Below, one piece after another: positions 3,632-31,020 of a stretch of 64,000 nt of DNA; the stretch's first letter is position 1, and each line of letters opens with the position of its first letter. Source of the stretch: Sarea resinae (lineage: Eukaryota); the NCBI GenBank assembly GCA_026026165.1, contig JAPEUD010000008.1:124001-188000 (forward strand). Direction: 5' to 3'. The notes below the pieces were generated by a model. The model saw nothing but the letters and a program-made list of their open reading frames with translations, made no database searches and was not told where the DNA came from. A program made the position numbers and the translations under genes.

Positions 3632-5504
3632 CTAGTAGGTTTCGCCAATTCCACTCATTTTCCTCCTGCTTTCTCGTGGTGTCGTATCTCGCTCTCCATC
3701 GTCTCCTGTCCCTATACTTGCCAGACGCGACCCCACGGGCTTGGCCAAGCCGCTTACCAAAGGCCCACTCCGTCTTCGAGGGAGTCCCGAAGGGGTTGGA
3801 ATACCCGACCCTTGAGCAAGATCGTTTTTCGTAAGAGTCGATCGTCTGGGGGTAGGTGTTGAGAAATCCTCTTTCTCGGTCGTCTCGGAGACGCTCGCAG
3901 ACTGTCCATGTCCATGAAGAGACGAGTAGTGGCCACCTACAGAGGACCGTGGCCGACGACTCTCAGCTACGCTGCTGGTAGAGTAATGACCAAGCGGTGT
4001 TCGTGTCCCAGTAAGGCTTGCTCGACTGCTTGGACGTGCATACTGACTAGTCGAACTTCTGCTGGAAACGCTCGCCCGACTGTTGGGCCTGCTATCGGCA
4101 CTCTTGTCACTCGGATGAAATCCGCCAAAGGAAACCCGGTTGACATGATTCGTCGAAAGGGGGATCGATTCGCCGGCGTCTCTCATTGAAGATGCTGCAC
4201 TGGCAGTGCTACCGCTAGCACGTTTCCGATTACTCCGCACAGTGACTGTTGAGGGAATGAAGTTATTACCTAAGGCTGAACCACTCCTTGGCGATGCTCC
4301 CGGTGGAGTGTTGACAGGTGCTGGTAATTTGGAACGAGCAGAGTGAACACGCTGTTCCAATTTTTGCATTTTGCCGATCAATCCACGTATCTGGTGAAGT
4401 GAACCTGAATGAGGTAGGCCGGGTGCGTCATTCATCTGGGCTCTGGCGGTCGAGCCAATACGAGAAACAGAAGATGGCGGCCATCCGTTACTTGATGGCG
4501 CCGAGGGAAGCTTGGACTGTATTTGGGTTCTCGAGGCGAAATGCGAAAGACGAGGAGTAACATTCGGATCTACCGCAGGAAGGCGCCTTTTGGGGAGGCT
4601 TGGCGCAGTCTTGGATGTTGCCGTAACGGAAGACTCTGATATTGGAGGTGATGGAGGAGTGGGCATCTCAGACACTGTAGATGATCCAGATTCCGGTGGA
4701 GGTGGGGTAGACATAGTCGGAGAGGATGTCGTCGTTGCGGGTGAGCTCTCTAATATGGGCGAATGTGGAGCATGGCCATTGGAGGATGCCAGGTGTGTAT
4801 TTCCAATATTTTGACGCTCAGCCGCCGCTTCCACATGCTTAAGCTTTTCTTGCGTAATCTCCGCTTCGATCTTGAGGTCGGAAAGCTCGTCACGCAAACG
4901 CTGCGTCTCTATCCGTAAAGCCTCGCGTTCTTTCTCACCGACCATAATCTCCTCCTCCAGTAAGACATTTCTCTCGAATGCTACATTATACTTTGACTCC
5001 AGATCCTCCAGAGACGATGAAGTATTTCGTGCCTGCCTCTCGAAATCATCGTTGGCGACCTCGATGTCTCGCAGCTTTAGCTGAAGTGTCCGAGTGGTGT
5101 CGCGTAAGGTCGTGATTTCTTTTTGGAGTGCATTTTGTGCCGCATTGCTCTCGGTCTTGGACTGCTTGTATTTTGTCTGCAGATTGAGATCAAATTAGCG
5201 TTCACTCAACCCCACCACGCCTAACAAGAGACGGTCCAGAAGGCGATTGGGCCCAAGTCTGGATACTGACCTTCCACTCATCGACCTCGAACCCTAATCC
5301 CTCCAGCTTCTCTTGTAGTTTCCTTTCCCTCTTCTCCGAAGCCTCTACGTCCCTTTCGAGCTCAGCTTCAAGCTCTCGGCTGGATGCTTGAAACTCTGCG
5401 AGCTCAACCTCCATCTGCTCGTATTGAGACTTGTAGTAAGCCAGCTCCTCTTCGGGAGTTGAATTTGTGCCCGGAGGCGACGTTGGCTCGTCCAAGGAAG
5501 GCAT
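3632..5504 (-). CDS. nudE: Nuclear distribution protein NudE/RO11 (NDE1/NDEL1 family)
   Basis: Exon 5504-5271 ([33 protein letters not shown] coiled coil), GT-AG intron 5270-5177, exon 5176-3632 with [29 protein letters not shown] and a Ser/Pro-rich tail; ~592 aa. Confidence 0.93.
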
Positions 5505-6892: not shown

Positions 6893-8696
6893 ATGGGGGC
6901 TGATCGCAAAGTCTTTGATGATCAGATGCAAGATGATGTCGTTCTTGAGAATCTGGGATACCAGCAAGGTACTGTACTCCCCGCAATGTGCTCTCCGGTT
7001 TAGATATACTAATTCAATTTACAGAGCTGAAGCGGTCATTTGGACTCCTGGGGATGATTGGTTTCAGCTTCAGTATAGTGACAAGGTCTGTATATGTGTG
7101 AGCTTGCTTTGGAGTTGGACGCCTGCTCAATTGGCAATCTAGTTGGACTGCTCTCGGAGGTGTCTTGATTGTGGGAGTGGAATCTGGCGGCCCTCCAGTG
7201 ATGATATGGAGCTGGATCGGAATCAGTGTCTTGACTCTCGCGGTGGCATATTCAATGGCAGAAATGTGCTCGGCATACCCTGTTGCGGGAGGTCAATACT
7301 CGTGGGTCGCTATCCTTTCACCTCCCTATCTGGCAAGAGGACTGTCGTGGGTCACAGGATGGTTCATGATCACAGGTATGGAGCCTCTAAACGAAACCCC
7401 ATCGTCCCGCTTGCTCACAATATTTAGGAGTCCTCGCCATGGGCGCCACGAACAATTTCGTGGCCTCGAATTTTATACTCGGTCAAGCTAATCTGTCCTA
7501 CCCCGAATATACAATCGAAAGATGGCACACTGTTCTACTAGCTTATCTCATCAGCCTGACCACCGCTCTCGTAAATATTCGGGGCCCACATCTCCTGGAC
7601 CGAATTTCTCGGGGCGTCTTGATCTTGAATATCGCGTCTTTTGTCATCGTCGTCGCGGTCATCCTTGCCTGCAATGATCATAAACAATCGGGATCCTTTG
7701 TTTTCAAAGACTTTCAGAACTTTACCGGCTGGGGTTCGGCTTTTACCGCTATCTTGGGTGTTCTCCAAAGCGCCTTTGGTATGTGCTGTTACGACGCGCC
7801 TTCCCACATGACCGAGGAGATGAAAAATGCTTCAAAAGAAGCACCGAAAGCCATTATCATGTCTGTCTATATAGGTGCCTTCACTGGACTCATATTCCTC
7901 ATCGCGGTGTGCTTTTGCATCGGCGATATTGACACTGTAGCCTCAACTACGACCGGAGTACCTCTAATTCAGATATTTTATGACTCCACCCGGTCCAAGG
8001 TGGGCGCCTGTTTTCTGGCCTCATTGATCTCCGTCATTGCTCTTGTTTGCGCAAATGCTTTGCTTGCGGAGGGCTCCCGGTCATTATACGCATTTGCAAG
8101 AGACAATGGCCTTCCGTTCTCCCACGTCTTCAGCAAGGTGGAGCCGAAAAAGCAAGTGCCGATAAATGCGATTTTGCTTGCTACTGTCTGTCAAATGGCC
8201 TTGAACTCAATATACTTTGGTACGGCTACTGGCTTCCAAACGGTCATCTCTATTGCCACAGAAGGTTTCTGTAAGTCTTTGTTTCGAATCGCTCCTCCCT
8301 TCTCAGCTCTCGCTGACTGGTCTCTCCGTAGATTTGTCTTACGCAATGCCTCTATTCGTCCGGATCCTGGCTCGTCTCACTGGTCACCACAAAGTTCTGC
8401 AAGGTCCATACAAGCTTGGGGAATATGGCCTATACTTGAATCTCATCGGCTTCATCTTCCTGCTTTTCGCGGCCATCACGTTCAATTTCCCGACTGCCCG
8501 TCCGGTCACGAAGGATAACATGAACTACACGTCCGCTGCTATTGGGGTCATTGGAGTCCTTAGTCTTGTTACTTGGATCTTCACTGGCCGGAAAAATTTC
8601 GCTGGTCCTGAGATGCATCTAGTGGGCGAGCCTGTTGAGCAGGAGGCCGATATTCCTGTTGTTGAGGTCGGGATGAAAGAGAAGTCAGCGACCTGA
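6893..8696 (+). CDS. APC-superfamily amino acid permease (GABA/choline permease-like)
   Basis: ATG 6893; multi-exon; motifs LENLGYQQ/ELKRSFGLLGMIGFSFSI, AEMCSAYPVAGGQYSW, YDAPSHMTEE, SRSLYAFARDNGLPFS, NMNYTSA; many transmembrane segments. Confidence 0.92.
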
Positions 8697-9482
8697 ATGC
8701 AAAAGGTATAGAAAGTATGTAATCTATCGTCACGTGAATTACATTTCCATAGAAGAACTCCCAGGAGGGAGCCTTTTATCTAGCTTAGCAGCCTCAGCCG
8801 ATGGGTGCTCTGCTCCTGCGTGCAATCATGTAAATGGACTATAAGTTTTGCACGTTGAAGCGCAAGTTCCGGATGAGTAGCTGCTGTAATCATCTACAAA
8901 GGCTTCAATTGATTTGGCCGAAGGACAGGTAGCTTTCTAGACAGTATTTAAACATTAATTGGCAATGCTGCCCAAGTCAGTCAAATATTAGGGTGCTTGA
9001 AATTGAAAGTCTGTGCCTTTGCTTCGCATCTTGAAAGCGAAGGTAGCCAGAGCTTCCCTACAGCCATCTATGTAATTATCTTTGTCTCCAGTATTTCACT
9101 CACTACGCAAACATCTCATGCGATTGGTACACAACCGTAAAGGACAACAAACGAGTCTGAGCCTCATAGATGATGTGTGAAGAATGACGTTGATGACTGC
9201 GGTGGCCTCTGACTGATGGTTCTGATGTTTCCCGCTCTCTCGCAAGTCTCATTGTGGCCTCGTCAGCAGGTGTAGCAGCACATACCAGCATTTAGGCAAC
9301 AGCCGAATAACCTCGACAACAACGACATCCCTTGCCACAATGCTTTTGATATGGCCCAGACTGTTCGCAACTATCTGCTTCCATCGCCGGTAATGCTCTG
9401 GAATCCACTGGTTCTTGAATGCTAATCTCGATTGCGTCCTCTATCTATTTCTTTTCATCCTGCGTTCCATACATTCGTAGCC

Positions 9483-12400
9483 ATGAGAGGCTTCCGACAA
9501 CGCCTTCTCTCGCAGCCTCTTTCGCAGAGTCTGACGAATCTGTACTTGGACGCAAAGACTTCTTACGAGACGGTGACTCGCCCGAGGGAATTAGAGGATG
9601 ATCCGGAATTCGTCGCTCTACATCGAAGATTGCGAATTCAAAAGGACCGACTTGCTACATGGGGCTTGGACTGGAGTGATTCCGCTGCCCTGCAAGGCGG
9701 TAATATCGATGAATCTATTCAGGAAGCTGGCTTGGCAGACGTCGTGGCAAGCGTCATGTCATCAATCCAAGAGATACTGAATGATGTCGAGAGCAAGCAG
9801 ACTTCTGAAGTGTCTCCGAAAGGCTTCGAGGATTCTGGGAAGAACCAGCCAGGGCACCGAAGGACAGAGACAGACAAATTGCGTCTAGAAGACTCAATCA
9901 AGGATCTCACGACTTCTATCGACACTTTGTACGACCTGTCTAGATCTCGTCATGGATACCATCACGTGGGTGGGCAGCAAACTCGACCAAATGAGAAGTG
10001 GCCAGCTCTCGCGGGCAAGAGCTCTCAGGCATCATCGTTAAGGACCGACCATCAAGACCCTGCTGATCTGGCAGATAACGAAGTCACTCTCTCTCACGAC
10101 TTGCCATCTTCTGGATTGCCCCAGTTGAAAGCGGAACTGCTTACGACGTTTCAGTCAGGTGATACGATCTCATCTCTGTCACGCCCTCCGCCATATGAAC
10201 CGGTAGCAACACCCTCTACTGTCAGGACCATCGGTCTTTACCACGGTCATGATTGTCCGAAGTCTTCTTCTGAAGCAGGAGAGAAAGAGTGCCCAGCTCG
10301 AGTTGTTCTGATCGAATACCTATGCCCATCCACTCTGGATCCAGCTGCGAGTCTCTCCGCAGTCTCATCTAAACTACAGAGTCCGGATCGGCCCTCCCAT
10401 CAGATCAAAAAGCATTACAATGAAACGTACACGGGCACGCTGAATCTGATAGGATACTTCAAAGATGCCCAGGGATCTCGTCTCGGGTTAGTATATGACT
10501 TACCACATGACAAGCCTCGCTTTACGAACAACCCTCAAAAGTTCTTACAGCGTTCGACGCCTTTCACTCTTCTCTCACTTCTACCGTCTAGCGGAAGTCC
10601 AACGAATACATCAGTGCCAGCGCTCGAGGATCGGCTACGCCTTGCTTTCAATCTCACTTCGACACTATTCCGGCTCCATGCAAAGGGAATTGTACACCGC
10701 AACGTCAACAGTAATAACGTTGTGTTCTTCCCACCTACCCCGCCTGAACCCGCCACTACTAAATCTACTTCTTCCCGTCCGCACAGGGGGCGGAACTGCA
10801 ACATAAGGACTCCGTACCTTTGCTCCATAGGGATGCTTCCTGACCCTGAGTCTGAGCATCCTACCAATTTGCGGCCCTCGAGTATCTATCGGCATCCATT
10901 TGAGGAAGATAACGCCAAGGCAATGCCATCATTCGACATCTACAGCTTAGGCCTGATTCTTCTGGAAATAGGCCTCTGGATGCCCTTAGGAGAATTTTGG
11001 AAGATGAAATATACCCTCGCAATGTTCAAGTCGAGATTACAGAACATCTATGTCAAAAAATTAGCGGCGAAATGTGGAACATCCTATATGCAAGCTGTCG
11101 AGGACTGCATCGCCATAGACGGGACTACGAACTTTCTTGTTGCACAAGACACCTACACGAGAATCCTAGGACGGCTTGAGCGCTGTTGTTTGATCGATGG
11201 CTATGATAGCATTTCTATTGAGACAACGACTAAGGGTAAAACTAACCCGGAGCATGATGGACTGCCAATTCAGGCGGCACTTAGTTCCGAAGGAAGAGAT
11301 ACAACCTCCCAACCATGGCTGTACGAGAGCGAGAAGCGAGACAGGATTAATAATTTTCCCGAGAAATGCCCTGTCCCCACTTGTCCCTTCCACGAGAAGG
11401 GGTTCGCACGAAAGTCTGACAAGAACAGGCACACGCTTACCCACTATAAAGGAACTATGTTTTGCGGTTTCTGCCATGGGACAGGCTTCTCCAAAGCAGA
11501 GAGCTTCACCCAGGTAGATGTCTTTAAGCGACATCTCACTTCAATCCATGGCGTGGAGCAATCTACTCTGAACAGTCCGAAGGGGAGCCTGGGTTCTGAA
11601 CAGAAAGGATCATTCTCTGTACACCCTCTGGATGCGATAGGCAAATGTTCCATTTGCTTGGCAAACTTTGACAATGCTCAAGACCTCTACGAGCATTTGG
11701 ATGACTGTATCTTTCAATCCATGCAGCAAGAAAATCTCACTCCGGCCACGAATAAAAGGGACGTAATGTCTATCGCAGAGGCTGAATTTGAACAGCTGGT
11801 ATCCCCACAACCAGCAGCACAGCCCCACCCAGGGCTTATCAATCCCACAGATCAGGTGATATCTGATGCCGGAAATTCTTCATCGTCTGCGTCAGTGAAG
11901 CTTCAATCCTCTGGAAACCCCACAGCATGTGTTTTAGATCCCAGTCGGCGGACTGTTCGAAAGCTGCGCGTCTACCCCGTGAAGACTGCTCCTCATCAGT
12001 TGGACGAGTGGCACGGAGTCCTACTTCCTCGTCTCGAACGCTTGCTTGAGAAGGCCGTGCGAGATCCCTACGAGACAGTTAGCATGGACTTTGTTAGTCT
12101 CGGTGAAACACAACAGAAGGCCAGACCGACGATCCTAGTCACTTGTACCAGCGTGAGGGATGTAAACAATATCCTCAGCCGCTATTTCACGTATGATAAC
12201 AGCCTCTACGATCTCAAAGTCCGTAGAGGGAAGATTCATCGATCTAAAGTCTCACGACCGAAGCAAAGGTCACCTCGTCGCTCAGCTGGACATTGGAAGA
12301 ACGAGAACGAAGACACTTCTGCAAAAAATCCCTTTCATCAGCAGCGACCCCTTTGCGGGGCGTCTATAGGTGTTTATAAAGACTCAGAGCATCTACCTCC

Positions 12401-13881
12401 TGTCTCGTATGGTGGTGTTATTCTATTAGATGGAGAGCCTTTTGGAATGACGGTCCATCACCTTCTTGAGACTCCTAGCGACGATGATAATAGCGAGGAT
12501 GAAGAAGACTTTTCTATTCGGTCGAGCGCTCGTTGGCCAGCTGGGTTAGATACGGATATTCAGGACCTCGGATCTCAACTTCAAGAGGACGATCTCCTAG
12601 ATTATCCGATTGTTGAATTTTCCGAAGACGAGAGCTGCTACTCTTCTACCGAAGATATCTATGAGATCGACCAAGACCTTTCCGATGATCCCAACTCTAG
12701 CGAAGATGAGAGTGGCCAGGAGGAGCGCGCTCGTTCCTGCGGAGACACCCCTAGCATTGCCAAAGGCAGTGGCGGGGAATACGTAATCACGCAGCCGGCC
12801 CTCGACGACGTCGACGACGATTTCTTTCCTTGCCCGGAAGATCGCGATGATGACCACCTCGACTCTCACACCCTCGGTCACATTTACGCTTCCTCAGGCC
12901 TTCGTCGCTGGAGCCGAAAAGGAATAGTCCACGAGATTGACTGGGCGATCCTCAAAGTCGACAGCGAGCGCCTCCAGCCTTACAATCTCATACAGGGCGG
13001 GAAGCGTTTTTGCCGCAAAGACTTTGGTGCTGGCGCTGATGGCGTGGCAATGTGTCCCAGACTCGTGGAGCCCGTTTGTCGGCGAGGGTTTGATGCAGCC
13101 GAGGATCTGTATCCCTTTCAGGTAGTACCGGAAGAGGAATTGGGTATGTTACGCGTGCATTGTTTGGGACGAACGAGCGGGCTACGGGGGGGAACGATCT
13201 CGCCGGCGATGAGCTCCGTCAGGGTCTATGGAAGGAAGACGTTTTCACGCAGTTGGGCCGTCGTCGGCAATTTTGGAGGTATGCTTATTTCCCATTTCCT
13301 TTGTCCCAGTGGATGAATTAGGAGTCGCACGTACTAACACATGTTGTACAGCTGGCGGTGACTCTGGCGCATGGGTCATCGACAATGAACAGGCTCGCGT
13401 CTGCGGTCACGTCATGGCATGGTGCGCGCGCAACGCCGTCGCCTATATATGCCCCATGCAAGTGCTATTCGAGGATATAGCACGTACGCTGCGTGTTGAT
13501 CGAATCGGGCTTCCGGGTGGTACTGCTACGGTAGCGAGGCAGGAGGATAGTGTGAAGGTGGATATCAGATCGGAGACCACGATGGCGCAAGAAGCGGAGA
13601 GAGAATCCGAAAGAGATGGCAGCTTTTTCCCAAGTCTCGACACCGCCACTGCCATGCCCACAGCTTCCACTAGTACTGGCGATCTACCCATACCCATCAC
13701 CATCAAGACCACCACCACTACAAGCTCCTCTTCTTCTTCTCCCTCTTCTCCTCTATGCCTCCCCCATCGTGCGCCCACAACTACCTACCGCCACCGCCGC
13801 CCAACCTCATTATCTCTGGACCGTAACGTCAACATCAACATCAGTAACGCGGCGTCGAGCCAGCAGCTCGTCAGAAGTTGA
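9483..13881 (+). CDS. Multidomain protein: N-terminal HeLo-like domain, kinase-like (pseudokinase) domain, C2H2 zinc-finger block, C-terminal trypsin-like (Ssy5/S64-like) serine protease
   Basis: Exon 9483-13278, intron 13279-13351, exon 13352-13881. N-terminal LHRRLRIQKDRLATWGLDWSD; kinase-like LEDRLRLA..IVHRNVNSNNV..IYRHP..FDIYSLGLILLEIGLW; CPVPTC..RHTLTH, CGFC..KRHLTSIH, CSIC..HLDDC; protease triad MTVHH / DWAILKV / GGDSGAWV. Confidence 0.8.
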
Positions 13882-14859: not shown

Positions 14860-16362
14860 CTAGGCGCCCGCAGTGGACGGGTCCAAGACGGCGCACAAAA
14901 GGCGTTCGTAATCGCCGCTCGTATCGCCCCTGACCCGGGCGACTAGGTCCTTGCCGCGAAAAGAGGCCTGATACGCACGCTTGACGTTCTCGAGATGGGC
15001 GCGATCCCAATGGGCACGGACGACGCGGTTCAGAAGCAAGACATCCTTGGTGCCGGGCCCCTTCATGGTTTCCTCGAGCAGGGCGGCGTCACGGGCGGCG
15101 CGGTCGGTGGCGCCGTCGAGGATGTACAGGAAGGCGTCGCGCATGTGGCCCGAGAAGTGCTTGTGCAGGACCTTGCGCAGAGGCGCGGCGTACGTGCGCT
15201 CGTACGTCTGGGCGAGCGCCGCGAGCTGTGGGTCTGAGAGCGTGGTGAGGAGGCGGCAGACTTCGAGGGTGTCGGTACCGGCGGCGAAGGGGCGGCCTTC
15301 GGTCGCGCGATGCATGTCGCTGGCGTGCTGGGAGAGTTGCTGTGGGATGGTGGGCGCCGAGGGTTCCGCGCGGGAGGCGGTCAGGACCATGGCGAAGAGC
15401 CGGGCCGTCTTCAGTGAGAGATCATCCGCCACGGCTTTCTCGAGCGCGACGTGGTATGTGGCGTGGTAAAGGGCTTTGATGGCCAGGAGGTCGGCATTGG
15501 AGCGCGAGAGCAGGACGTCGTTGAGGAGGGCCTCGTTGGTGCCTGCGCCCGCGATGGATTGGTGGAGGAGGTGGACATCTTGGGCTAAGGGCCCCCGGGC
15601 GAGCGCGAGGAGTGTTTCTTCAAAGTAGCCCGACGTTTCTTTCGCCAGGTCGGTTTCGAGACTGCGCGAGAAGAGGCGCGTGTATGTCGTCCGGATCGTG
15701 GCCATGCTGAGCGCGTCTGGCCGGCAGAGTACGCGGATGAGCGTTTTCTCATCCGTGCCGAACCCTTTCATTGCTCTTCGGAGGGAGGATGTTTCTGCTG
15801 TTGCGTCGTAGGGGGCTGAGGCGTTGGGGATGTAGCCTGGGGATGGAGGAGCAGCTTGGGCGTATTGGTTGGGAGGGGGAGGGCCGTAGGGGTTCTAAAG
15901 GAACATGGTTAGATCTGTGTTTGACCTTTTGGGGACTGGGGATGTGTACTGGAGGAGCTCCATATCCGGCCTGTTGAGGCGGCTGGCCGTATGGCTGTTG
16001 TGGTGGATATTGTGGGCCCGGGGGGTATCCCCCGTAGCCTTGCTGTTGCTGTTGCTGAGGATAGTAAGGCTGCGGTGGGCCTTGTCCATAGCCACCAGCT
16101 TGTGAAGGGTGTGGAGGATATGGGGGTGCGGCTTGACTGTAGCCTGCATTTGGAGGATATTGCTGATACTGGTTCGGTGGTGGACCCTGATTTGGATACG
16201 GATGGTTTGGGACAGGTGGAGGAGCACCGTAGCCCGGCTGAGGGGACGCTGAGGCAGGTGTCAGTATCAATCTCCTGCAAGATATCCGGTGATTGGAATG
16301 GGGAACGCACGAGAGCCATATGGTGGGTATCCGGGAGGTCCTTGAGGAGGCGGGTAGTTCAT
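14860..16362 (-). CDS. Annexin with Pro/Gly/Tyr/Gln-rich N-terminus (annexin A7/A11-like)
   Basis: Exons 16362-16311, 16248-15950 and 15894-14860 splice in frame (~461 aa); four annexin repeats (MKGFGTDE, IAGAGTNE, AAGTDT, MKGPGTKD; ETSGYFE, DTSGDYE). Confidence 0.93.
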
Positions 16363-17060: not shown

Positions 17061-19858
17061 TCACTGGAACTTCGGCACGTCGTAGACGTCGTCTGCATCT
17101 ATAAAGAGAGGACGCGTTAGAGTATTGATATATTAGCATTTACATATATATAGACATACCTTTCCCAACCGTCATGATGTACTCATGCGACTTATTTCTC
17201 AGGTGTCCTAACTCGGCCAAGATCTTCGGCATTTCAAGCTTGACTGTCTCGTTGGTCTTCGAGGCGCCCCTGATCGCCGCCTCAGCAACATGGTATCTGC
17301 TGACTCTGTTCTGGAGCATCATATCGAAGGGCGTCGTGGTAGTGCCTTCCTCTCGGTAGCTCTCGATCGAGACGCGGTTGAGGTTTGGCCGGCCAAAGAG
17401 CAAACCCTGGAGCTCCCCTGCGTAGCCATGGTAGTTGAAATGGATGGGCTTATCCGAGGTGAAAAGAGAGTCGAAGTCGTCATGGCTTAAGGAATGAGGA
17501 TGAGCGCCCTCGAGGCTGAGAATCATGAGATCTGTGACATTGACGACACGGAGACGGAGGTGAGGGGCAATTTTCCGGAGAAGTTCCGCTGCTTTGATTA
17601 CCTCGAAGGTGAGTTCGCAGCCGATGCCGACTATCACGACGTCTGGGTTCACGCCGCGGTCTGTGCTGGCGAATTTCCATACGGAGCCGCCGGCTTTGCA
17701 GTGACTGTCGGCTTCTTCAGGGGACAGGTATACTGGGGTGGGTTGCTTAGACCCAACCATCAGATTGACGTAGTTCTTCGAGCGAAGGCAGTGGGCAAAT
17801 GTTGAGAGGAAACAATTCGCGTCTGGGGGAAGATAGACGCGAGCAGCACCTGGCTTGAGATTCAATACAGCACCGATAAATGAAGGATTCTGGTGAGAAA
17901 AGCCGTTGTGCTCTTGCCTGGTCCAGGTGCTAGTTTCGATATAGTTAATACTACCAATATCTCCTCTCCATGACATTTCGCGAGCCTGAACCGGTCAGTA
18001 TATTAAACAGGTAGTGACTGATTGAGATTTACCATCTTATTGAACTTGCTGTACTGGACCATCATAGTGTGAACGATGCCCAGGAAGCTCTCATATGAGG
18101 GGAATAACCCCACTCGGCCAGTCAAGGTATAGCCTTGCATAAATCCTTGACATGTGTGCTCTGAGAGAATCTCGATAACTCTTCCGCCTTGTGCCTTCGA
18201 GTATTGGTCCCACTGGAAGTCTCGTCCAGTGTGACGGAAGACAGCGTCAAGCTTGTTGCTGACGAGCTCATCCGGCGAAAACACTCTCATCGTGTGCGGG
18301 TTGTCGACCAATGTCTTATCAAGCAATTCTCCGACGGCTTTCATGCAACTTACTTCCGAGAACTTTTCAACGCCGAATTGTTGCCATTCCGGGACGTTTA
18401 CACCCACAAAGCAATCATATGACTCCTTCCTCTGACCGAGCTTTTTGTCATCTCTTTTCGGGATGATGCTGAGGACTGGATCCTGAACGTCACCGTCTGG
18501 TGTGAAAAGCTCTTTGGGATGGTAAGACTCTAGCCATCCTTGGAGGTCTTTGAGCTCCTCTGGATCAGTCTTTGCAGCTGGAAGGGGTACTTGATGAGCA
18601 TGAAAAGAGCCTTCAATGAATTCTCCGTGTACTTTCTTGGGTCCTCCCCAGCCCTGTACCAATTAGCATTCACCAACGAGTATACTCACCATTCTGCGAC
18701 ATACCTTTGGCGTTCTCATGATCAGAACTGGCCATCTTGGTTTGGGGATTGGCTTTCCCGAACGAGCGGCCTCTTGGATCTTATGAATCTCGCCCACGGC
18801 CCACTCCATAGAAGCACCCATGTCCCCGTCAATATCTCCTAGATCCTCGACAAAGCGGACTTGGTAGCCATAGCCAGAGAACAGACAAACGATTTCTTTA
18901 TCGTCCATGCAGCCATATATGGTTCTCTCGCTGATTTTGAAGCCATTGACATGTACGATTGGTATGACTGCACCCGACTCTTTGGGATCAATGTATTTGT
19001 AGCCATGCCAAGCACTGCGTATCAGGTAATTAGCTCTCTTTCCTAAAGGATCTTTCTCTACTTACGTAGCAGTTGGGCCACTCTCGGCCTCACCATCGCC
19101 GACTACACAAGCGACGATGAGGTCGGGCTTGTCCATCACAGCACCAAAGGCAACAGACAAGGCGTATCCTAGCTCGCCACCTTCATGAATGGCTCCGGGA
19201 GTTTCCGCATTGATGTGACTATCGTCCCCGTCGTCAGAATATCGAGACATCGAGCGAAGTGGGAAAGTCTACTGACCTTGGAAATCCACCAGGTGTGCTA
19301 AATCTTGTAATCAGATTGTGCAAGCCCTGCTTATCCCGAGTGTAATGGGGATAGAATCGTCCCAATGAACCTTCGAGCCACAATGAGGCAAGAATAGCTG
19401 GAGCGCCATGGCCCGGTCCGACAACATAGAGGATATCCAGATCGTGCTTCTTGACCAGTAAATTCAGGTGGGAATATACGAGGATGAGACCCGGGCATGT
19501 CCCCCAGTGACCTATATCCACCTTAGCGATGATCTCGACTGCGCACGGTAGGCTCTAGCATACCCAGCAATCGATGCTTTATATCATCAAATGTTAGATC
19601 ACGGTCAATTAGCACATTGCCTTTCAGGAAGATCATAGCTAAGGCGGCGGTGATCAGCAAACGTTCGCGACGTCATATCTCAAGGCGTCTCGTACCCCCA
19701 GCAATATAGTTGGCCGCGCGGCGGAACTCCTGGAGGGCCAACCTGGTGCCATCATCGAGCTTCGCATTTTCGAGCTTCACCGAGAGAGACAGGACCTCGT
19801 CGGGGATGTGCGATGGCAGTGGAGGAGGGTTCGCTTGCTCAATCACTTCTCCGGGCAT
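17061..19858 (-). CDS. xfp: Xylulose-5-phosphate/fructose-6-phosphate phosphoketolase
   Basis: Multi-exon; motifs [45 protein letters not shown] (TPP-binding), [31 protein letters not shown]; last exon ..[10 protein letters not shown] ends at 17061. Confidence 0.97.
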
Positions 19859-22731: not shown

Positions 22732-25700
22732 ATGGCAGCGGCTCAGCAGACCGGTCTGCTCGATCTGGAGAAAGAGTTGACGTGCTCTGTAAGCTTCCCT
22801 CTCAAAGCGCGCCTTCGTTTGCCGGCATCTGAGCTGTATGCAAACGAGAGGAGCTGCAGACTCCAGCTTCCTAAGACATGCAGAGAAATGCCTGTTGAAA
22901 AAACCAAGATGCTAATGTTCCGCAGATCTGCACCGAAGTACTCTACCAACCCCTCACCCTCCTCGACTGCCTCCATACGTTCTGCGGCTCTTGCTTGAAA
23001 GAGTGGTTCAGCTGGCAGGGCGAACACTCCTCCAGCAGACATCCGTACACTTGCCCATCATGTCGCGCATCCGTGCGAGAGACCAGGCCGGATGCCAAAG
23101 TGACGACGCTTCTGGACATGTTCCTACAGGCGAACCCAGGAAGAGGGAAGAGTGAAGAGGAGAAGGAGGAGATCAAAGTCAAGTACACACCTGGAGAAAA
23201 TGTGGTGCCGAGGATCGAACATCGAAGAAGATCATCCTCGCGATCAGACAGGGAGGATAGGAGGCTTATAGAGGAGGTTAGGGAATTGAGCTTGAGGGAT
23301 GTGGAGGCAAATTCCGCGGGTCCTCGCGACAATACACTACGAGTCGCTGGGATTCGTGAATCGAGGGAATCAGAGAACCAACGGCGGCGAAGGAATCATG
23401 AGTCTCGTCATCGGCATAGGAACAGCAGTCATCTTTCTTCAACAAGTCGAGGCGACGAGGCCAGCAGAAGCCCTTCACGGCAAAGGTCGCGGAGCCGTCA
23501 AGTAGGGCATCAATCCAGTCTCCGGTCTCTTCTGAGCACCGATCTGGATTCGGAAGAGACTGTTGAGGAGATTATGCGCCAGATTTCCGAGGAGGGCCTT
23601 TTGGATGGCATTGACTTTAGCAATCTCGATGGTGCACAAGAGGACGAGCTCAGCGAGAAAATCGCGGAGGCGTATCGACGACGGCATCCTCGGCCGTCTA
23701 CACGGACAGGTGAAAGCCAGAGCGACTCAGGCGAATCCCGTCCGAGGTCTCGAAGACGGGAAGAGGAGCAGCCAAGGCAAAGACATCATGCAAGATCACA
23801 CAGCGCTGCTATCCAGCCGAGTCAGCCTCGTCAACCATCTGCGTCTCGCACGCATTTGCTTCCCGAAGAACCGGGGACTCGTGCCCGTCGACAGAGAGCC
23901 TCGAGCGACGTTCGCCGTCAGCACTCTCCGCCACCCAGTGCGCTCGGAACCACGTCCAATACTGGTAGAGCCGCAGCGCGCTCTGCGACAGACCTCTCTG
24001 ACAGGCCTCAGTCGTCTCATGCGCAACATTCCAGAAGCCAGAGGCCAACAGACCGTAATCGCAGCACCACCGACCCCGAGAACAGAAGTGTGCGTGGATT
24101 GTGGCAAGGAGGCCCTCTATTTCCGAGAGCGACGGGAAATTCATCCCCTAGATCTAGTACCCCATCTACGAATGATCGTCCTCCGGCCAGGTCATCACCT
24201 ACCATGGCGTCTCCGCAAGTCACTGAAAACCAAGAAACAGTTCCAACTTCTACTCACACGCCACCTCCTGGTCTAGCCTCCGGGGCTGGCTCGCTCGTTC
24301 CTCCGACATCGTCAAACGACACACAGACATCAAATTCGAGACCTTCATCTTCATCGTCCGCCGCTCGCCCTCGTGCAGTCCTATACCCCGAACCGTCGAT
24401 CTCGTGCAGCCGCTGCAACAAAGCCCACATCGAATACGAACTGCACGAAAACTGCGACAAATGCAACGACGGCAATTACAATCTCTGTCTACGATGCTAC
24501 CGTCTCGGCAAAGGCTGTCTGCACTGGTACGGCTTTGGCTACGCGGCATGGGCACGTTATGAACGGCAGGCGCCCGCGGGAGGGTATCCGGCCGATCATG
24601 CGGTCCCCCACACCCTGACGGGGCAGCGCTATCTCCGACCGAAACAGGGTGCTCTGCAGCCTGCACCTGGCGACGATGGGCGATCACTGACCAGTGAAGA
24701 TGCGTCGAAAAGACTCCAGAGGGGCGTCTTCTGCGCCATCTGTCTCGCGTTTGCAAATCCCTGTTTCTGGAAATGCGACCTCTGCAACGAGGGCGAATGG
24801 GGCTTTTGCAACTCCTGCGTCGCTCAGGGGCGGTGTTGTACGCATCCTCTACTGCCCCTGACGCACAGGTCTAGTCCAAGGCCGCCTCGTCTCGAAACAC
24901 AACAGCAGCAGCAACAACAACAGCAACAACAAATACAACAGCCACCATCATCCTTCTCTCCCAATTTTCCACAAGACAGCCCGACCAAAGCGTCGCCCAC
25001 CGCAGCTCTACTGCCTCCCGGCACCGACATCGGACTCCCAAGCAGCAGAAGCCTCCCAGGCACCTTCATCCCACTAACCTTCCGCACCAAATGCGACATC
25101 TGCAAATACCCGATCCAGCCATCGACGACGCGCTTCCACTGCCCGCAATGCACCGGCGGCGACTACGACATCTGTACGCCGTGCTACCACAAGCTGGTGC
25201 TGTCGGGCCGGATCAGCGGCGAGAACGGGCACCGCGGCTGGCGGCGCTGTCTGGCGGGCCATCGCATGGTGGTGGTCGGGTTCGAGGACCGCGGCGCCGG
25301 CCAGAGGCGAGTCGTCGTGCGCGACCTGGTGGGCGGAACCACGCTCAAGGACGAAGGCGAGGCCTCCGCCGCCACCGCCACCGCCGCCGCGCCTGGTGGT
25401 GGTGGTAGTGGTAGTGGCGACGACAGGGACGCCGGCAACACCGCCAAGGCTTTCTCGTCCACCTGGACGTGGCAGGATGGGCCGGGCGGCGAGAAGAAAT
25501 CCAGGAGTATTGGCGGTGGTGGTGGTGGTGGTGGTGGTGCCGTTTCGCAGTCTCCCACCACGACCACCACCACCAGCAACACACGAAAACCCTTCTTCCC
25601 GCCCGACGGCGGCGTCGGCATGCGCGTCGTCGCGCTGTGGAGCTACTACCCGGCGCCCGGCGTGGCCGACGAACTGATGTTCCCCAAGGGCGCCGAGGTG

Positions 25701-25796
25701 CGCGAGGTCGAGGACATCAACGGCGATTGGTTCTGGGGCGCGTACGCGGGCGCCAAGGGCTTGTTTCCCGGGGGGTATGTGCGGGTGATTGGATAA
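22732..25796 (+). CDS. RING-finger (CHFR-like) putative E3 ligase with ZZ-type zinc fingers and C-terminal SH3 domain
   Basis: Exon 22732-22788, intron, exon 22926-25796: DLEKELTCS/ICTEVLYQPLTLLDCLHTFCGSC..CPSCR (RING); CSRC..CDKC..YNLCLRC and CDIC..FHCPQC..YDICTPC (ZZ-like); ALWSYYP..DELMFPKGAEV..WFWG..GLFPGGYV (SH3). Confidence 0.9.
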
Positions 25797-26159: not shown

Positions 26160-29100
26160 TCAGCACGCCCAATGACAATCCATCTGCCGATTCTGTATTG
26201 ATCGAAAATTAGCATCTCAGTCTCTCTATCCGAAGTTTGACAACGGTGGCAGTGGAAGAAGTTGTGGGTTTCAAGGGGGAGAAGAGAAGAAAATAAAAAT
26301 AAACTTGACTTACAGCTGAATGCTGGTCGGCGCCCAGCGACGTCGCGCTATCGAGCCAATCCCAGAAATTGCCATTGTCCCATCCGCCGACGGAGCAGTA
26401 CGGCAGGCGGGACGAATCCGTATCCGTGTCATCCCACTCGGTCGAGCCGGCCGTCAGGGTGAGGACCCAATCTTCCCAGTTGATCTGGGGCGGCGGGGGC
26501 GCGACCATTCTGCCACGGAAGCGGCGGCTGCTGCTGCTTGTGGGAATGGTGGTGCGGTTGAGGAAGTCGACGGAGAGGTCGTAGGGGAGGTGGGAGTCAG
26601 AGGCGGCGACCGAGGCGCTGTCGCCCCAGTGGAGCTGGTAGTTTTGGCTGGCGAGCAGCGCGTTGGCGCCGTCGGTGATGTTGAGCTGCACGTACAGCGG
26701 CTCGTTGTAGCTGAGCGAGGCCTCGAAGATGTGCAGATCGCACGTGCCGGTGGCGTAGGCGGGCGGGGGCGACGAGGTGCTGACGGCGATGCGCGTCGTG
26801 GTGCCGACTTCGCACGTGTACGTGGTGGCCTTGTCCGGGCCCACGGTCGTGCCCACGCCGGCCTGCCACCCGTCATTGCATGCACATGCGATGGTGGCGG
26901 GGACGTTGATGTCGCCGGTGCTGAGAGCCGCCTGGCTGGTTAGAGCACAGGAGGTTATTGGTGGCACTGTAGTGCTGACGGCTATACGTGTGGTTGTGCC
27001 GACCTCGCAGGTGTACGTGGTTGCCTTGTCAGGGCCAACCGTCGTCCCCACGCCGGCCTGCCAACCGTCATTGCATGCACATGCGATGGTGGCTGGAATG
27101 TTGATATCGCCGGTGCTGAGAGCCGCTTGGCTAGTCAAAGTACAAGAGCTAATCGGCGGAGATGAAGTTATGCTGTAGGTGGAGGACGCCGTGGAAGTTA
27201 CGCTATGGCCGGAGGACGAGGCAGCACTGGGGGATATAGATGATAGCGGCGAAGACGAGCCTGTGGCCTTTGTTGTTTTTATGAGCATAGTACTCGTCGA
27301 GGATGGCCCGGAGCCCGAGCTTGTCGAAGCCTTTGTTGCTGAATTGGTGGTACTCGAGATCTGGGTGCTATTTGCGCTGGGCGATGATGACGAGCTTCCA
27401 GTGGATGCCCCATTCGAGCTCGAAGAAGTCTTGGAGGCGCCGGATGAAGTGGCGGAACTGCTAGAGCTAGAACCGGTGGAATTACTGGTGTAGCCGCTGC
27501 ATGGGTTTGCGTAGCCAACGTCTCGCTGCTGAATAGTGCCCGTGGGTGGTGTAGTGTGCGGAAGCCAGAAGTCTTGGTACGTGATCAGTTGATCCTCTAC
27601 CCACAACCGCCATCGACCGATTTGAAGGCCGGGAGAGGTCGGATCCACACCAGACGCAGTCGTTGTGAGCCAGCTCTGGAACGGGTCAACTTCCAAGATG
27701 GCTCTACCGGCAGTGCCAGGGTTCTGGGTTGACGCTTGTGCGCTGGTACGCGTGTAGCCCAAGGTAAAGCCGGTACCACCTGAACCAGGCAGGATTCCGG
27801 CTATCTTGTTCGCGAGATCCTGAGCGCGCGCTTGATACCTCAGCGTAGTGGTGATTTGGAAGTTATTTCGATCAAAGTCGGTTGTGCGCGGAGTGAGGAC
27901 AAAGACTTTGGGGCTGTAGATAGCGTTCAAGACTCCAGGCTGGGCGTCGGTTCCTATGAGGGAGGTAATACTTAGAGCATTTGCTGTGCCATCGCGGAGA
28001 GAATTGAACGCTTTAGTCGTAAAAGAAGCGTCGTCGGTTGAAGCCCAAGTACTGTCAATGAAGACAGGGTTCTCCCAGATGTGAGAGAGATACACACCCT
28101 TCTCGGATGAGATGATCACGGCCGTGCACCCGTAAATGCCATTGACACCTACAGCTGCGTGACCAAAGATTGGATAGTCGTACCAGTGTCCAGACGCATC
28201 TCCTTGTTGACTGACCCAGGTAGCCCCTTGACTCAAACCTCTGACGTAGTTGGTGTAAGGAGGAGTGACGTCCGGAAGAGCGCGTTCAAACAAGGGGTTA
28301 GAAATATCCCCCAGAGTTTCATTGGAATCCGTTGGATCACTGGAAAATCCTCTCTTGGAAGGGGCATTGGTGGAGTCAGTCGGGCTTGCAACCGCAATGG
28401 TCCCAGCGACTCCGTAGCTAGCGGTTGGCAGAGCAGAGGTCGTACTCGTTGAGATCAGCGAACAGTCTTCAGTAGTAGCTATGATCCCCATGCTGGCGCC
28501 ACTGAGAGGACCTCCACCCAGGGGACATGCGCCCCCACAAGTATCAGAAGCACATGGTGTCTGAGTTGCGCTTGACGACGCCGAACTAGAGACAGTCGTT
28601 GTCGTTCCGGTGACAGAGCAGCCGCTGGTCGTGACCGTGGTTGTGGGCGAGCAAGTCGTGGTTGAAACCGTGGAACCGCCGGTCGTATATGTGGTAGGTA
28701 TACATAGAACAGTGACTCTCAATGCTGTTTGCGTGGATGTGCACGAGGAGGATGAGCTCGTTCCAGAACTGCTTCCGGTGCTCTTTGACGTGCCCGTTGA
28801 TGTTTTAGAGTTCGTGTTGCTACTCGAATTGTTGTCGTCGCCGTCGTCAGTGAGATCATCGTTCTCTGATGTTAAGTCGTCCAAAGTGCTTTCAACGCCC
28901 TCGGTATCATCGGCATTGACACTGTCCGTGATGTTGTCCAAATCCTCGTCGATGCAAGACAATGAACTTACGACGTCGCTGATAGGGCCCAGCAGACCCC
29001 TCTTCTTCTTCTTCGAACCACATGGTTTAGACGACGAATCACTGCCCAGATCGGAGATGAGATCTTCCACGTCGCTTTTGATACTTTTGACTTTGTTTAG

Positions 29101-29973
29101 AGTGTCTGTCTTGAGCGGTGTCGGGCTTGCCTTCCAAGAATTGATGACAGGTATCAGGCCTACAATCTGGGAGGACACTGAAGATACAGCAGACGTTGCT
29201 TGAGAGCTGGCAATAGTCGTTGTAGCTGCTGGAAGAGTAATTGGTGACGAGAGTCCTCCGCCAGTAATGATGGGCTCTCTGACGGTTGTGCCAGATTCCA
29301 CAATGATGGAAGTGATGATGCCTAATGTGACGCTGGGAATAGCTGAAGTGCTGTTGCTGCTACCAATAGCCGTCGAGGATGACCCTGAAGAGGAAGAGGG
29401 CCTTGGCGAGCTTCCCGTTCCAGCCGATGAGCTAGCCAATATTGGAGAGGAAGATAATCTTGATGAGCTCCCTGTCCCAGTTGATGACGAGGTGGACGAA
29501 TTTGAAAATCTTGCGGTGGATGGGAGGCTGATGCTCGATGAGGAGACTGCCGTGCTGTTGGTGCCTTGAATGCTATTGCTAGTGCTGGGAGGTAGGTTTG
29601 TACTTGACGAAGAGGGTGTGCTGGATGTGATAGGCGCAGAGTTGGAACAAGCCTTGCCGGGGACAATAACGACAGAGCCTCCCTGCTTGACAGCAGACAT
29701 GACACAGCCATCTGAAAGAGTGTAAGTAGCCGCTGTGGTGTTTCCTCCCAGGCTAATCGTTTTGCTTGAGTCGACTACAATACCGGCGCCGTTTGGAAGG
29801 ATAGACAAGGGCTCTGCATCATACGTAGTCGCGGTAGAGACGGGCAAGGTAAAATTGGAGTAGTATACACTACTACTGCTCGATATGGCAGCTGCAGATG
29901 CATATCGGGCAATCGAAGACAGGACGAAAAGCGCTCTTCCGGTTGATGCGGGCCAGCCGCCATGGTACCGCAT
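26160..29973 (-). CDS. Large secreted Ser/Thr-rich multidomain protein with putative CNF1/CheD-like Cys-His domain, two Cys-rich repeats and a C-terminal Cys/Trp domain
   Basis: Exon 29973-26314, GT-AG intron 26313-26193, last exon 26192-26160 (NRQMDCHWAC*); ~1230 aa. Signal-peptide-like N-terminus (ALFVLSSIARYASA|AAI); dibasic sites KKKKR, SKR; motif VGVNGIYGCTAVIISSEKGVYLSHIWE. The gene model is well supported, the function is not. Confidence 0.8.
26772..27160 (-). repeat. Two tandem 195-nt (65-aa) coding repeats
   Basis: PPI(S/T)SC(T/A)LTSQAALSTGDIN(I/V)PATIACACNDGWQAGVGTTVGPDKATTYTCEVGTTTRIAVST occurs twice; identical nucleotide anchors are 195 nt apart (26878 and 27073). Confidence 0.95.
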
Positions 29974-31020
29974 GATGAGGGTTGATGTAAAGACAGACGC
30001 AGGTGAAAGAGACGTGAAGACAGATGCAAAAACGAGAGACGTAAAGACAGCTGCAAAAGAATGAGATGCAAGAGATAGGAATCAACAAGATTGCTCGCAT
30101 GGGAATCGAGGCACATCTATAAACGCTTATACCCGACGACTCTGGACAACAGCTGGAGATCATGAGATTGACATTATCGTATATAGCCCTATTAGAACAA
30201 AGATTCCGATCCTAGATCTGTTGGAGAAAGCAACTAATGCATGTTGGACATGACTGAAACGATCGTGCCCAAGGATACTGCTGCGCCGCGGACTGCGGGC
30301 GTAAACCTCACAGTCGATCTGCGGACAGGCACATTGGACGTGGAGCAGCAGAGAGAGAGAGAGAGATCAGCCTATACACAATACGAAGATATGAAACATA
30401 CAACCTGGAAGACCGATGAAGCACCGAAAAGGGAAAAGGTTGGACGTGCTGTGACCAACACCAACCAACACTCCAACACCCTTTGGTGAGCAGGAGTAAT
30501 AGTAAGCACTAGATCAGCCTCGCAGCCGTCTCCCGCTCTTGACGGATCATCGGTTGACGGTTCATGGTTGATATTCATCCACCGATGCCCATCTCATCGG
30601 TGGCCGTTTCAGCCCACGCACGGCCACGGGGGCGCTCTGATCCTGTACTACCATGTATGAGTACTACGTAATACTATGGATGAGTACTACGTGCTACTTG
30701 ATACCCTCATGGAGCCGTGTGCACGGATGGCCAATTTCCTTTTCCTCGATGCGAGTGAGGGATTCATTTCCAACGTGTTGTTACGCAGGAGCATTATGTA
30801 AAGGGTGATCATCGCTAAACTGAGGTACCACCTTACCCCAACACTAAGATTTACGTACGGAGTATCGAGTGCTCTCGACATCGGTGACAGGTATGGCAGG
30901 GACCTTGAACGGGGTTCCATGAGCATCGCCCTGGTGCCATATACAATGGGATGGCAACAGCAGATTCAGTCTGCGTACTGACCGGATACAGGATATCACA
31001 TAGTAGTCAATCCAGAAAAG

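Follow-up and report, generated by a model that had tools for sequence, protein, structure and literature searches.

The 64-kb window analysed here, a stretch of 64,000 nucleotides from one contig of Sarea resinae, carries on its forward strand a two-exon gene that is assigned below as an orthologue of sltB of Aspergillus nidulans. Each module of the encoded protein has one match in this genome (G000), and the features of the gene are as follows.

9483 to 13881, forward strand: sltB orthologue, exons 9483-13278 and 13352-13881, 1441 amino acids after splicing
9531 to 9950, forward strand: HeLo-like helical bundle, residues 17-156 (Pfam HeLo at E 0.008; helical in the model of the orthologue P0299)
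10179 to 11192, forward strand: pseudokinase domain, residues 233-570 (DUF7580 at E 8e-6; kinase fold with Z 19.7 in the orthologue model)
11193 to 11957, forward strand: variable inter-domain linker, or slot, residues 571-825 (55 residues, an insert of 150 residues, and 50 residues)
11904 to 12011, forward strand: putative self-cleavage zone, residues 808-843, corresponding through P0464 to M692 to W722 of A. nidulans (PMC4985261)
11958 to 12257, forward strand: conserved alpha/beta domain preceding the protease, residues 826-925, which together with the protease aligns to rice NAL1
12315 to 13365, forward strand: trypsin-fold serine protease with H993 (the presumed catalytic His), D1153 and S1270 (codon 13363-13365)
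13279 to 13351, forward strand: single intron of 73 nt, phase 1, four codons before the catalytic Ser

The neighbouring genes (3632-5194, 7391-8696, 14860-15894, 17140-17994 and 22899-25796) are ordinary; the products among them are NudE, an amino-acid permease, an annexin, a phosphoketolase and a RING/ZZ protein. At E 0.001 Pfam gave no match for a frame of 1290 codons on the reverse strand (26209-30081). The region upstream of the host gene (8697-9482) contains two AGGCA sites of the SltA type, at 9014 and 9294, but because 1.4 such sites are expected by chance they are uninformative.

In A. nidulans, SltB (AN6132) is a protein of 1272 amino acids that consists of a pseudokinase and an Ssy5-like serine protease (PMC4557415). 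It is a cytoplasmic signalling protease for salt and alkali in the Slt cation/alkaline-pH pathway (PMC4557415, PMC4985261). The protein cleaves itself intramolecularly near Met-692 and cuts the transcription factor SltA, which yields the active form (PMC4985261), a model that is restated in PMC11011638. Cleavage of SltB took place under all conditions tested and none was found to stop it; two lysines next to the cut, 690 and 693, are ubiquitinated, and slt mutants are relieved by calcium (PMC4985261). Both halves of the protein are cytoplasmic and excluded from nuclei, and the known phenotype is sensitivity to cations and alkali (PMC4985261). Strains expressing N-terminal fragments are described, in the accessible text of that paper, only as non-functional or null, and an N-terminal GFP tag renders SltB non-functional (PMC4985261).

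The correspondence with SltB was drawn through P0464, a protein of 1272 amino acids named Aspergillus recurvatus, from a cluster of 15, which served as a stand-in for AN6132. P0464 matches 20 of the 24 published SltB residue numbers, as against at most seven for the other 270 long proteins; of its four misses, three are alternative Asp candidates and one is His-939, all from the 2015 SltB paper (PMC4557415). The identity between P0464 and the S. resinae protein (P0003) is 42% over 703-1164 and 33% over 12-576. Residues S1142, F1126, G1156 and H1033/D1036 of A. nidulans correspond to S1270, F1254, G1284 and H1150/D1153 here, so that the Phe at Ser-16 and the Gly at Ser+14 agree with SltB, and the phase and offset of the intron are identical to those of A. 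nidulans sltB (PMC4557415). A three-finger gene of the SltA/Ace1 type is also present in the genome (G000:C85), and the Lys at position +6 of the helix of its finger I is consistent with that identity. This gene was found, and is presumed to be SltA/Ace1, on the basis of known motifs; a first match to the SltA pattern proved to be an unrelated C2H2 gene and was rejected. The host gene is single-copy in G000, no empty paralogue was matched there, and the gene is intact by its conserved columns in all four domains. In the orthologue rows the protease residues are nearly invariant (His in 120/120, Asp in 120/120 and Ser in 106/108 ungapped). Taken together, these comparisons show that the host is the single-copy orthologue of A. 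nidulans SltB. The sequence-only reading had placed the gene among putative immune or death proteins, and that idea was dropped with the identification of SltB; we advise against listing the host as a new immune receptor of fungi.

Several features of the host domains deserve comment in their own right. In whole-protein scans the HeLo match is below the cut-off here (E 0.008) and above it in many orthologues (down to 2e-9); the word HeLo has no occurrence in the accessible text of PMC4557415, where a bundle of this kind at the N-terminus of SltB goes unmentioned. The pseudokinase is without canonical VAIK, HRD and DFG motifs, and at two positions an acidic residue retained by most close orthologues is replaced, D407N and D450G (10701-10703 and 10827-10838; residues 407 and 449-452). 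A degenerate pseudokinase was considered as a sign of a change of partner and rejected; the two substitutions are unusual in the first 120 rows, yet 56 of 57 columns conserved in the wider family are kept. In the protease, a TVHH motif at 12450-12461 (residues 990-993; 871-874 of A. nidulans via P0464) occurs in 327 of 336 family proteins. Its second His presumably stands where the order of motifs in the trypsin fold would place the catalytic His. For this role H939, H1008 or H1033 had been put forward in the work on SltB, and H1033A caused only a partial loss (PMC4557415, PMC4985261). H874 of A. nidulans would be the likelier catalytic His.

The linker between the pseudokinase and the protease is where the S. 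resinae protein departs from its relatives. The C2H2 block noted in the sequence-only reading lies here (11367-11708); it has three fingers and is in frame within a stop-free frame (9426-13316, forward strand, 1296 codons). The captured stretch is longer than first noted and comprises the following features, with helix positions given in standard C2H2 numbering.

11358 to 11808, forward strand: captured segment, residues 626-775, whose source is a C2H2 gene at G000:C89
11367 to 11444, forward strand: finger A (donor finger 2), C2H2, residues 629-654, with Y645S at helix position +2
11463 to 11549, forward strand: finger B (donor finger 3), C2H2, residues 661-689, with N676T, R677Q (position -1) and A678V
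11646 to 11708, forward strand: finger C (donor finger 4), C2HC, residues 722-742, with pLDDT 85-92 over the finger

A search of the genome for a parent gene, proposed at the outset, returned one other copy (G000:C89:175660-176016, reverse strand; 70% amino acid identity, E 4e-55). Over 11358-11808 the two align without gaps, with 335 of 451 nucleotides (74%) and 94 of 150 amino acids (63%) identical, and on both sides of this segment the identity falls to background level. The suspected resemblance to a conserved stand-alone C2H2 protein of the Pezizomycotina, in diverged form, is thus borne out: the donor belongs to such a family (precomputed PF28332; 119 of the best 120 of 207 matches). A characterised member was looked for in this precomputed family and none was identified, and none of its 119 listed members matches any of five profiles of the host protein. 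The donor is not SltA, a candidate that was rejected because SltA is the different gene at C85. Among the matches listed, the insert is closest to the donor of its own genome, the next best relative sharing 82 residues, and members from other species share 54-61% of amino acids (local BLAST). Seven substitutions are common to the insert and the own-genome donor, none of them occurring in more than 4% of the 119 listed relatives, and the two group together with an SH-aLRT of 97 in a quick tree in which the insert is a long branch. These observations show that the insert was copied from the conserved C2H2 gene that stands alone elsewhere in this genome. It shares with the donor family fingers 2-4 and the helix that follows them; the family's conserved C-terminal domain, its finger 1 and its long N-terminal region are missing from the insert. 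The copied stretch of the donor is intron-free, and no target-site duplication or microhomology is evident at the junctions, so DNA-mediated and RNA-mediated capture cannot be told apart.

The capture is specific to this lineage, as had been supposed. The donor-family profile matches one of 378 host-family proteins, the S. resinae protein itself, and in an earlier and smaller set none of 119 orthologues matched the zinc-finger block. In a FastTree of conserved blocks with 109 rows (31 chosen among the first 120 matches, the other 78 being representatives that contain the required blocks), the host gene is sister to its orthologue in Xylona with a support of 90, and Sarea-type fungi have been grouped with Xylona (PMC9157775). 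The linker of the Xylona orthologue is empty and 107 amino acids long, and that of S. resinae is 105 amino acids long when the insert is subtracted, which indicates a plain insertion after the split from the Xylona line.

An artefact, whether an assembly chimera or a stretch that is spliced out of the transcript, might be invoked, since no second genome with this insert was found among the best 120 of 207 donor-family matches or among the 378 family proteins, and since the inserts of other lineages described below are known as predicted proteins only, many of them from metagenome assemblies. The 26% nucleotide divergence from the donor, however, is codon-structured, the frame is open throughout, and two inserts of other lineages recur in separate records (an RRM-like stretch in three and a bZIP in two). 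One contig of run X1 (10768-12698) crosses both junctions with no differences and at even depth; as this run may be the source of the same DNA and is not independent, the contig argues only against a mis-join. An artefact is therefore scarcely credible.

The divergence between insert and donor also carries a record of selection. The Nei-Gojobori comparison gave a dS of 0.92 and a dN of 0.21, with a ratio of 0.22 (bootstrap 0.12-0.38) that falls to 0.06 over the fingers and rises to 0.67 between them; these values, which follow up the comparison with the parent suggested earlier, are pairwise and include the donor branch. All 12 zinc ligands of the three captured fingers are kept, an outcome with a probability under simulated neutral change of matching depth from 0.0013 (K 0.25) to 0.017 (K 0.15). 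Purifying selection on the insert is supported by these figures. At the same time, constraint has relaxed: of 99 columns conserved in the family, 69 are retained in the insert and the other 30 differ, whereas the donor retains 91. The structure model of the insert is of low confidence (mean pLDDT 58), and a search of the PDB with it gave no match at E 0.001.

The three ligand-intact fingers come from a gene of the transcription-factor type, and the sequence-only reading had offered, as one possibility, that they link the host to DNA; SltB or its N-terminal half would then be a chimeric transcription regulator. Several observations weigh against this. Finger 1 of the donor lies outside the captured stretch, conserved recognition-helix residues are changed (Y645S, N676T, R677Q and A678V), two of these changes, Y645S and R677Q, fall at base-contact positions in columns invariant in the 119 listed members of the donor family, and the basic patch after finger B has been replaced (R699P). 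In addition, both SltB halves are found outside the nuclei in A. nidulans (PMC4985261). A tether to DNA is accordingly very improbable, and we infer that the insert has kept its fold and probably lost its ability to read DNA.

The same linker has received other pieces in other lineages. Pfam scans of whole proteins covered 20 of the first 120 matches and 118 of 139 new representatives, and the following were found in the linker of predicted proteins.

P0005: formin GBD, Pfam 7e-10, partial (3-54 of 188)
P0010: TPR, Pfam 3.5e-10
P0066 and P0269: WD40, twice, in distant clades
P0277: WW, Pfam 2e-10
P0287: half of a TOR FRB, Pfam 1.7e-6, partial (57-98 of 99)
P0121: bZIP, weak Pfam match (0.005)
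P0046: IQ, weak Pfam match (0.007)
Three Candelariales-type records: RRM-like stretch, by eye
Trizodia: C2HC-like stretch, by eye

The FRB and GBD pieces match genes of G000 that we take, by recognition of their translations, to be TOR-like and formin-like. Apart from the two WD40s the inserts are mutually unrelated. With the S. resinae insert included and the IQ motifs set aside, the events number ten and are scattered on the tree, and they would appear to represent about ten independent captures. The RRM-like insert has no support from Pfam on whole proteins, from a sequence search of the PDB or from the own-genome search; in one pair of records it is more conserved than its flanks (64/79 vs 62/113), and in the other two pairs insert and flanks are alike. 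In one of the bZIP copies (P0112) part of the basic region is gone. IQ-like motifs, which characterise the Dothideomycete clade, were counted in 123 of 217 linkers, a figure that is inflated by many Pleosporales rows. Slot lengths range from 42 to 285 amino acids in 97 representatives and reach 461 in all 217. All 119 Eurotiomycete matches have linkers of 87-110 amino acids and no insert. A search by eye of the 71 metagenome loci with both anchors, out of 77, gave no new globular insert, and an Atlas search gave only leads below 0.9, to the family already in hand.

The distribution of these events is uneven. The linker between HeLo and pseudokinase holds one capture, a PX domain (P0251, residues 226-312), which is the only one seen outside the main slot. 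The ratio is thus 10 to 1 in favour of the main linker (P 0.012); for strong Pfam captures only it is 6 to 1 (P 0.125, or 0.004 when weighted by linker lengths). Seven events fall in one clade of 24 rows, as against three in the other 85 rows, with a P of 0.0009 that is soft because this clade was sampled without 50% clustering. As controls, the 119 listed rows of the donor's own family, the sole control family, hold no foreign Pfam family in the precomputed column, and the 12 long frames of the window have ordinary domains or none; neither is a proper genome-wide null.

Other rearrangements were observed around the same modules. Stops and frame changes in the linker suggest an intron in several other lineages (L043, L044, L074, L075, L081 and L082), and there is none in the S. 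resinae linker. The SltB protease module stands at the C-terminus of unrelated N-termini in P0354, P0357, P0358 and P0361 (GTPase-like and C2H2-type regions, by eye), with Ala or Thr in place of the catalytic Ser in P0354 and P0358. In P0364 a Rhodanese-like and an Aip3p/Bud6 domain replace HeLo and pseudokinase, and the SltB-type protease half is intact. Protease-only genes were not found in the 2015 study of SltB (PMC4557415).

The insert ends about 33 residues before the mapped cleavage zone. Since the cut maps downstream of it, the half that carries HeLo and pseudokinase would retain the fingers. In the model of the short-linker orthologue P0299 (mean pLDDT 71.5), the linker is disordered, with pLDDT below 50.

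Based on the current evidence, the explanation we prefer, which we hold to be evenly poised between right and wrong, is that a permissive, cleaved linker tolerates captured fragments, some of which are then kept folded by selection. Once this lineage had separated from that of Xylona, a 451-bp copy of the fungus's own C2H2 gene entered, in frame, the disordered linker that connects pseudokinase and protease, a little ahead of the putative site of the SltB self-cut. Because the linker has length to spare, is cut through in the mature protein and connects halves that fold on their own, it would tolerate foreign pieces, and different lineages would have fixed different pieces, by tolerance rather than for a new function. 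When the HeLo-pseudokinase half is released, the fingers would form a zinc-bound appendage at its C-terminus, held in frame and folded by selection while their DNA-reading role decays, and the Slt pathway, in which SltB cuts SltA, would be unaffected. The partial domains (FRB and GBD), the decay in one bZIP copy, the many insert-free lineages and the drifted insert of S. resinae speak for tolerance. Pure tolerance does not, however, predict the strength of selection on the fingers and their ligands. The conservation of the RRM-like insert, the IQ motifs, the preference for one slot and the fact that several donors are signalling hubs (TOR and formin) are further points against it.

These same points lead to a second explanation, namely that the inserts of each lineage were co-opted as regulatory plug-ins, which bind a partner or determine how stable the pseudokinase pro-fragment is, and thereby tune the activation of SltA. 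The fingers of S. resinae would in that case be a protein-binding or substrate-mimic module. This proposal has a reasonable though clearly less than even claim. In its favour, no condition is known to stop the cleavage of SltB in A. nidulans, K690 and K693 are ubiquitinated there, and slt mutants are relieved by calcium (PMC4985261). The IQ motifs are of the calmodulin type. Among 33 loci the best match of the insert other than the donor is finger 2 of SltA (E 0.0012), the sole finger there with the same spacing; this likeness of finger A to SltA is weak, however, and with the donor-family profile a different locus comes out on top. Many inserts are fragments, the bZIP copy P0112 is partly without its basic region, and most lineages carry a linker free of inserts. 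The WD40 and TPR inserts, which resemble abundant NLR-type repeats, likewise count against co-option. Tolerance and regulatory co-option shade into each other.

A bolder form of co-option would make the SltB linker an evolutionary socket, in which the fungus's own signalling fragments (TOR FRB, formin GBD, WW, IQ, bZIP and zinc fingers) serve as working sensors or baits that rewire how the protease activates its transcription factor, most actively in the Xylona/Candelariales/Lichinales group. We consider this possible and distinctly doubtful. If it were true, it would be an integrated-domain system outside the NLRs.

The sequence-only reading had instead proposed an integrated decoy, and in its full form the fragments would bait effectors, and an attack on the linker would unleash the HeLo bundle of an immune or death switch. 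One part of that proposal stands, in that the insert is a lineage-restricted copy of a single-copy gene of the host. The HeLo-like bundle followed by a pseudokinase resembles MLKL (PMC12881547), the gathering at one site of varied host fragments, each particular to a lineage, is what NLR integrated domains show, which have been proposed in fungi too (PMC12258605), and the 24-row clade with seven of the ten events consists of symbiotic or plant-associated fungi, under uneven sampling. On the other hand, no NB-ARC or NACHT was found by Pfam at E up to 1, the rest of the protein being assigned to other domains, the host is single-copy and its gene tree roughly vertical, and in A. nidulans constitutive cleavage sets the N-terminal half free, the phenotype concerns cations and alkali, and the strains with N-terminal fragments are called only non-functional or null in the accessible text (PMC4985261). 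The decoy is thus a minority reading and improbable.

SltB itself was already known, and integrated domains have been proposed for fungal NLRs (PMC12258605). No published account of domain capture by the SltB linker was found in a search of the main texts of mostly open-access papers, and the S. resinae insert is apparently one case of a recurrent and seemingly undescribed pattern of capture. It is a clean and datable domain capture, with the parent gene known, in a single-copy signalling gene that is not an NLR. In A. nidulans no condition was found that stops the cleavage of SltB (PMC4985261), and the linker beside its cut has taken up about ten unrelated domains, while the Dothideomycetes have kept IQ-like motifs. 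The inserts are a ready-made panel of natural variants for swapping into A. nidulans. Even if they are passengers, they illustrate how a cleaved linker can become a hot spot of domain accretion.

Among known systems, the domain order invites comparison with MLKL and the fungal HeLo/HELL-kinase proteins, in which a helical bundle is likewise followed by a pseudokinase (PMC12881547). SltB differs from them in its C-terminal protease, its constitutive self-cleavage and a characterised role other than cell death. In the P0299 model, the post-linker domain and protease share the fold of rice NAL1 (7y77; Z 19.9 over 289 residues, rmsd 4.9) and of the alpha-lytic-type L5 protease of Lysobacter (5mrt; Z 18.6), but these chains possess neither the HeLo-like bundle nor the pseudokinase, the identity is 17%, and a shared fold does not show function. 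The integrated domains of NLRs, in plants and as proposed in the Sordariales (PMC12258605), are similar in that a lineage-specific copy of a host domain with a traceable single-copy parent sits in a conserved scaffold. Unlike in NLR decoys, the scaffold here is a single-copy stress-signalling protease with no known effector or death output, and the inserts lie in a self-cleaved linker. The papers on SltB remark, in their accessible text, on the non-conserved linker and not on foreign domains (PMC4557415, PMC4985261). SltB of A. nidulans and the S. resinae protein are alike in the pseudokinase and Ssy5-like protease, the phase and offset of the intron, the context of the catalytic Ser, the SltA partner and the single copy, whereas the S. 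resinae linker is 255 amino acids long, including the 150-residue zinc-finger block, as against 87-110 in the Eurotiomycete orthologues.
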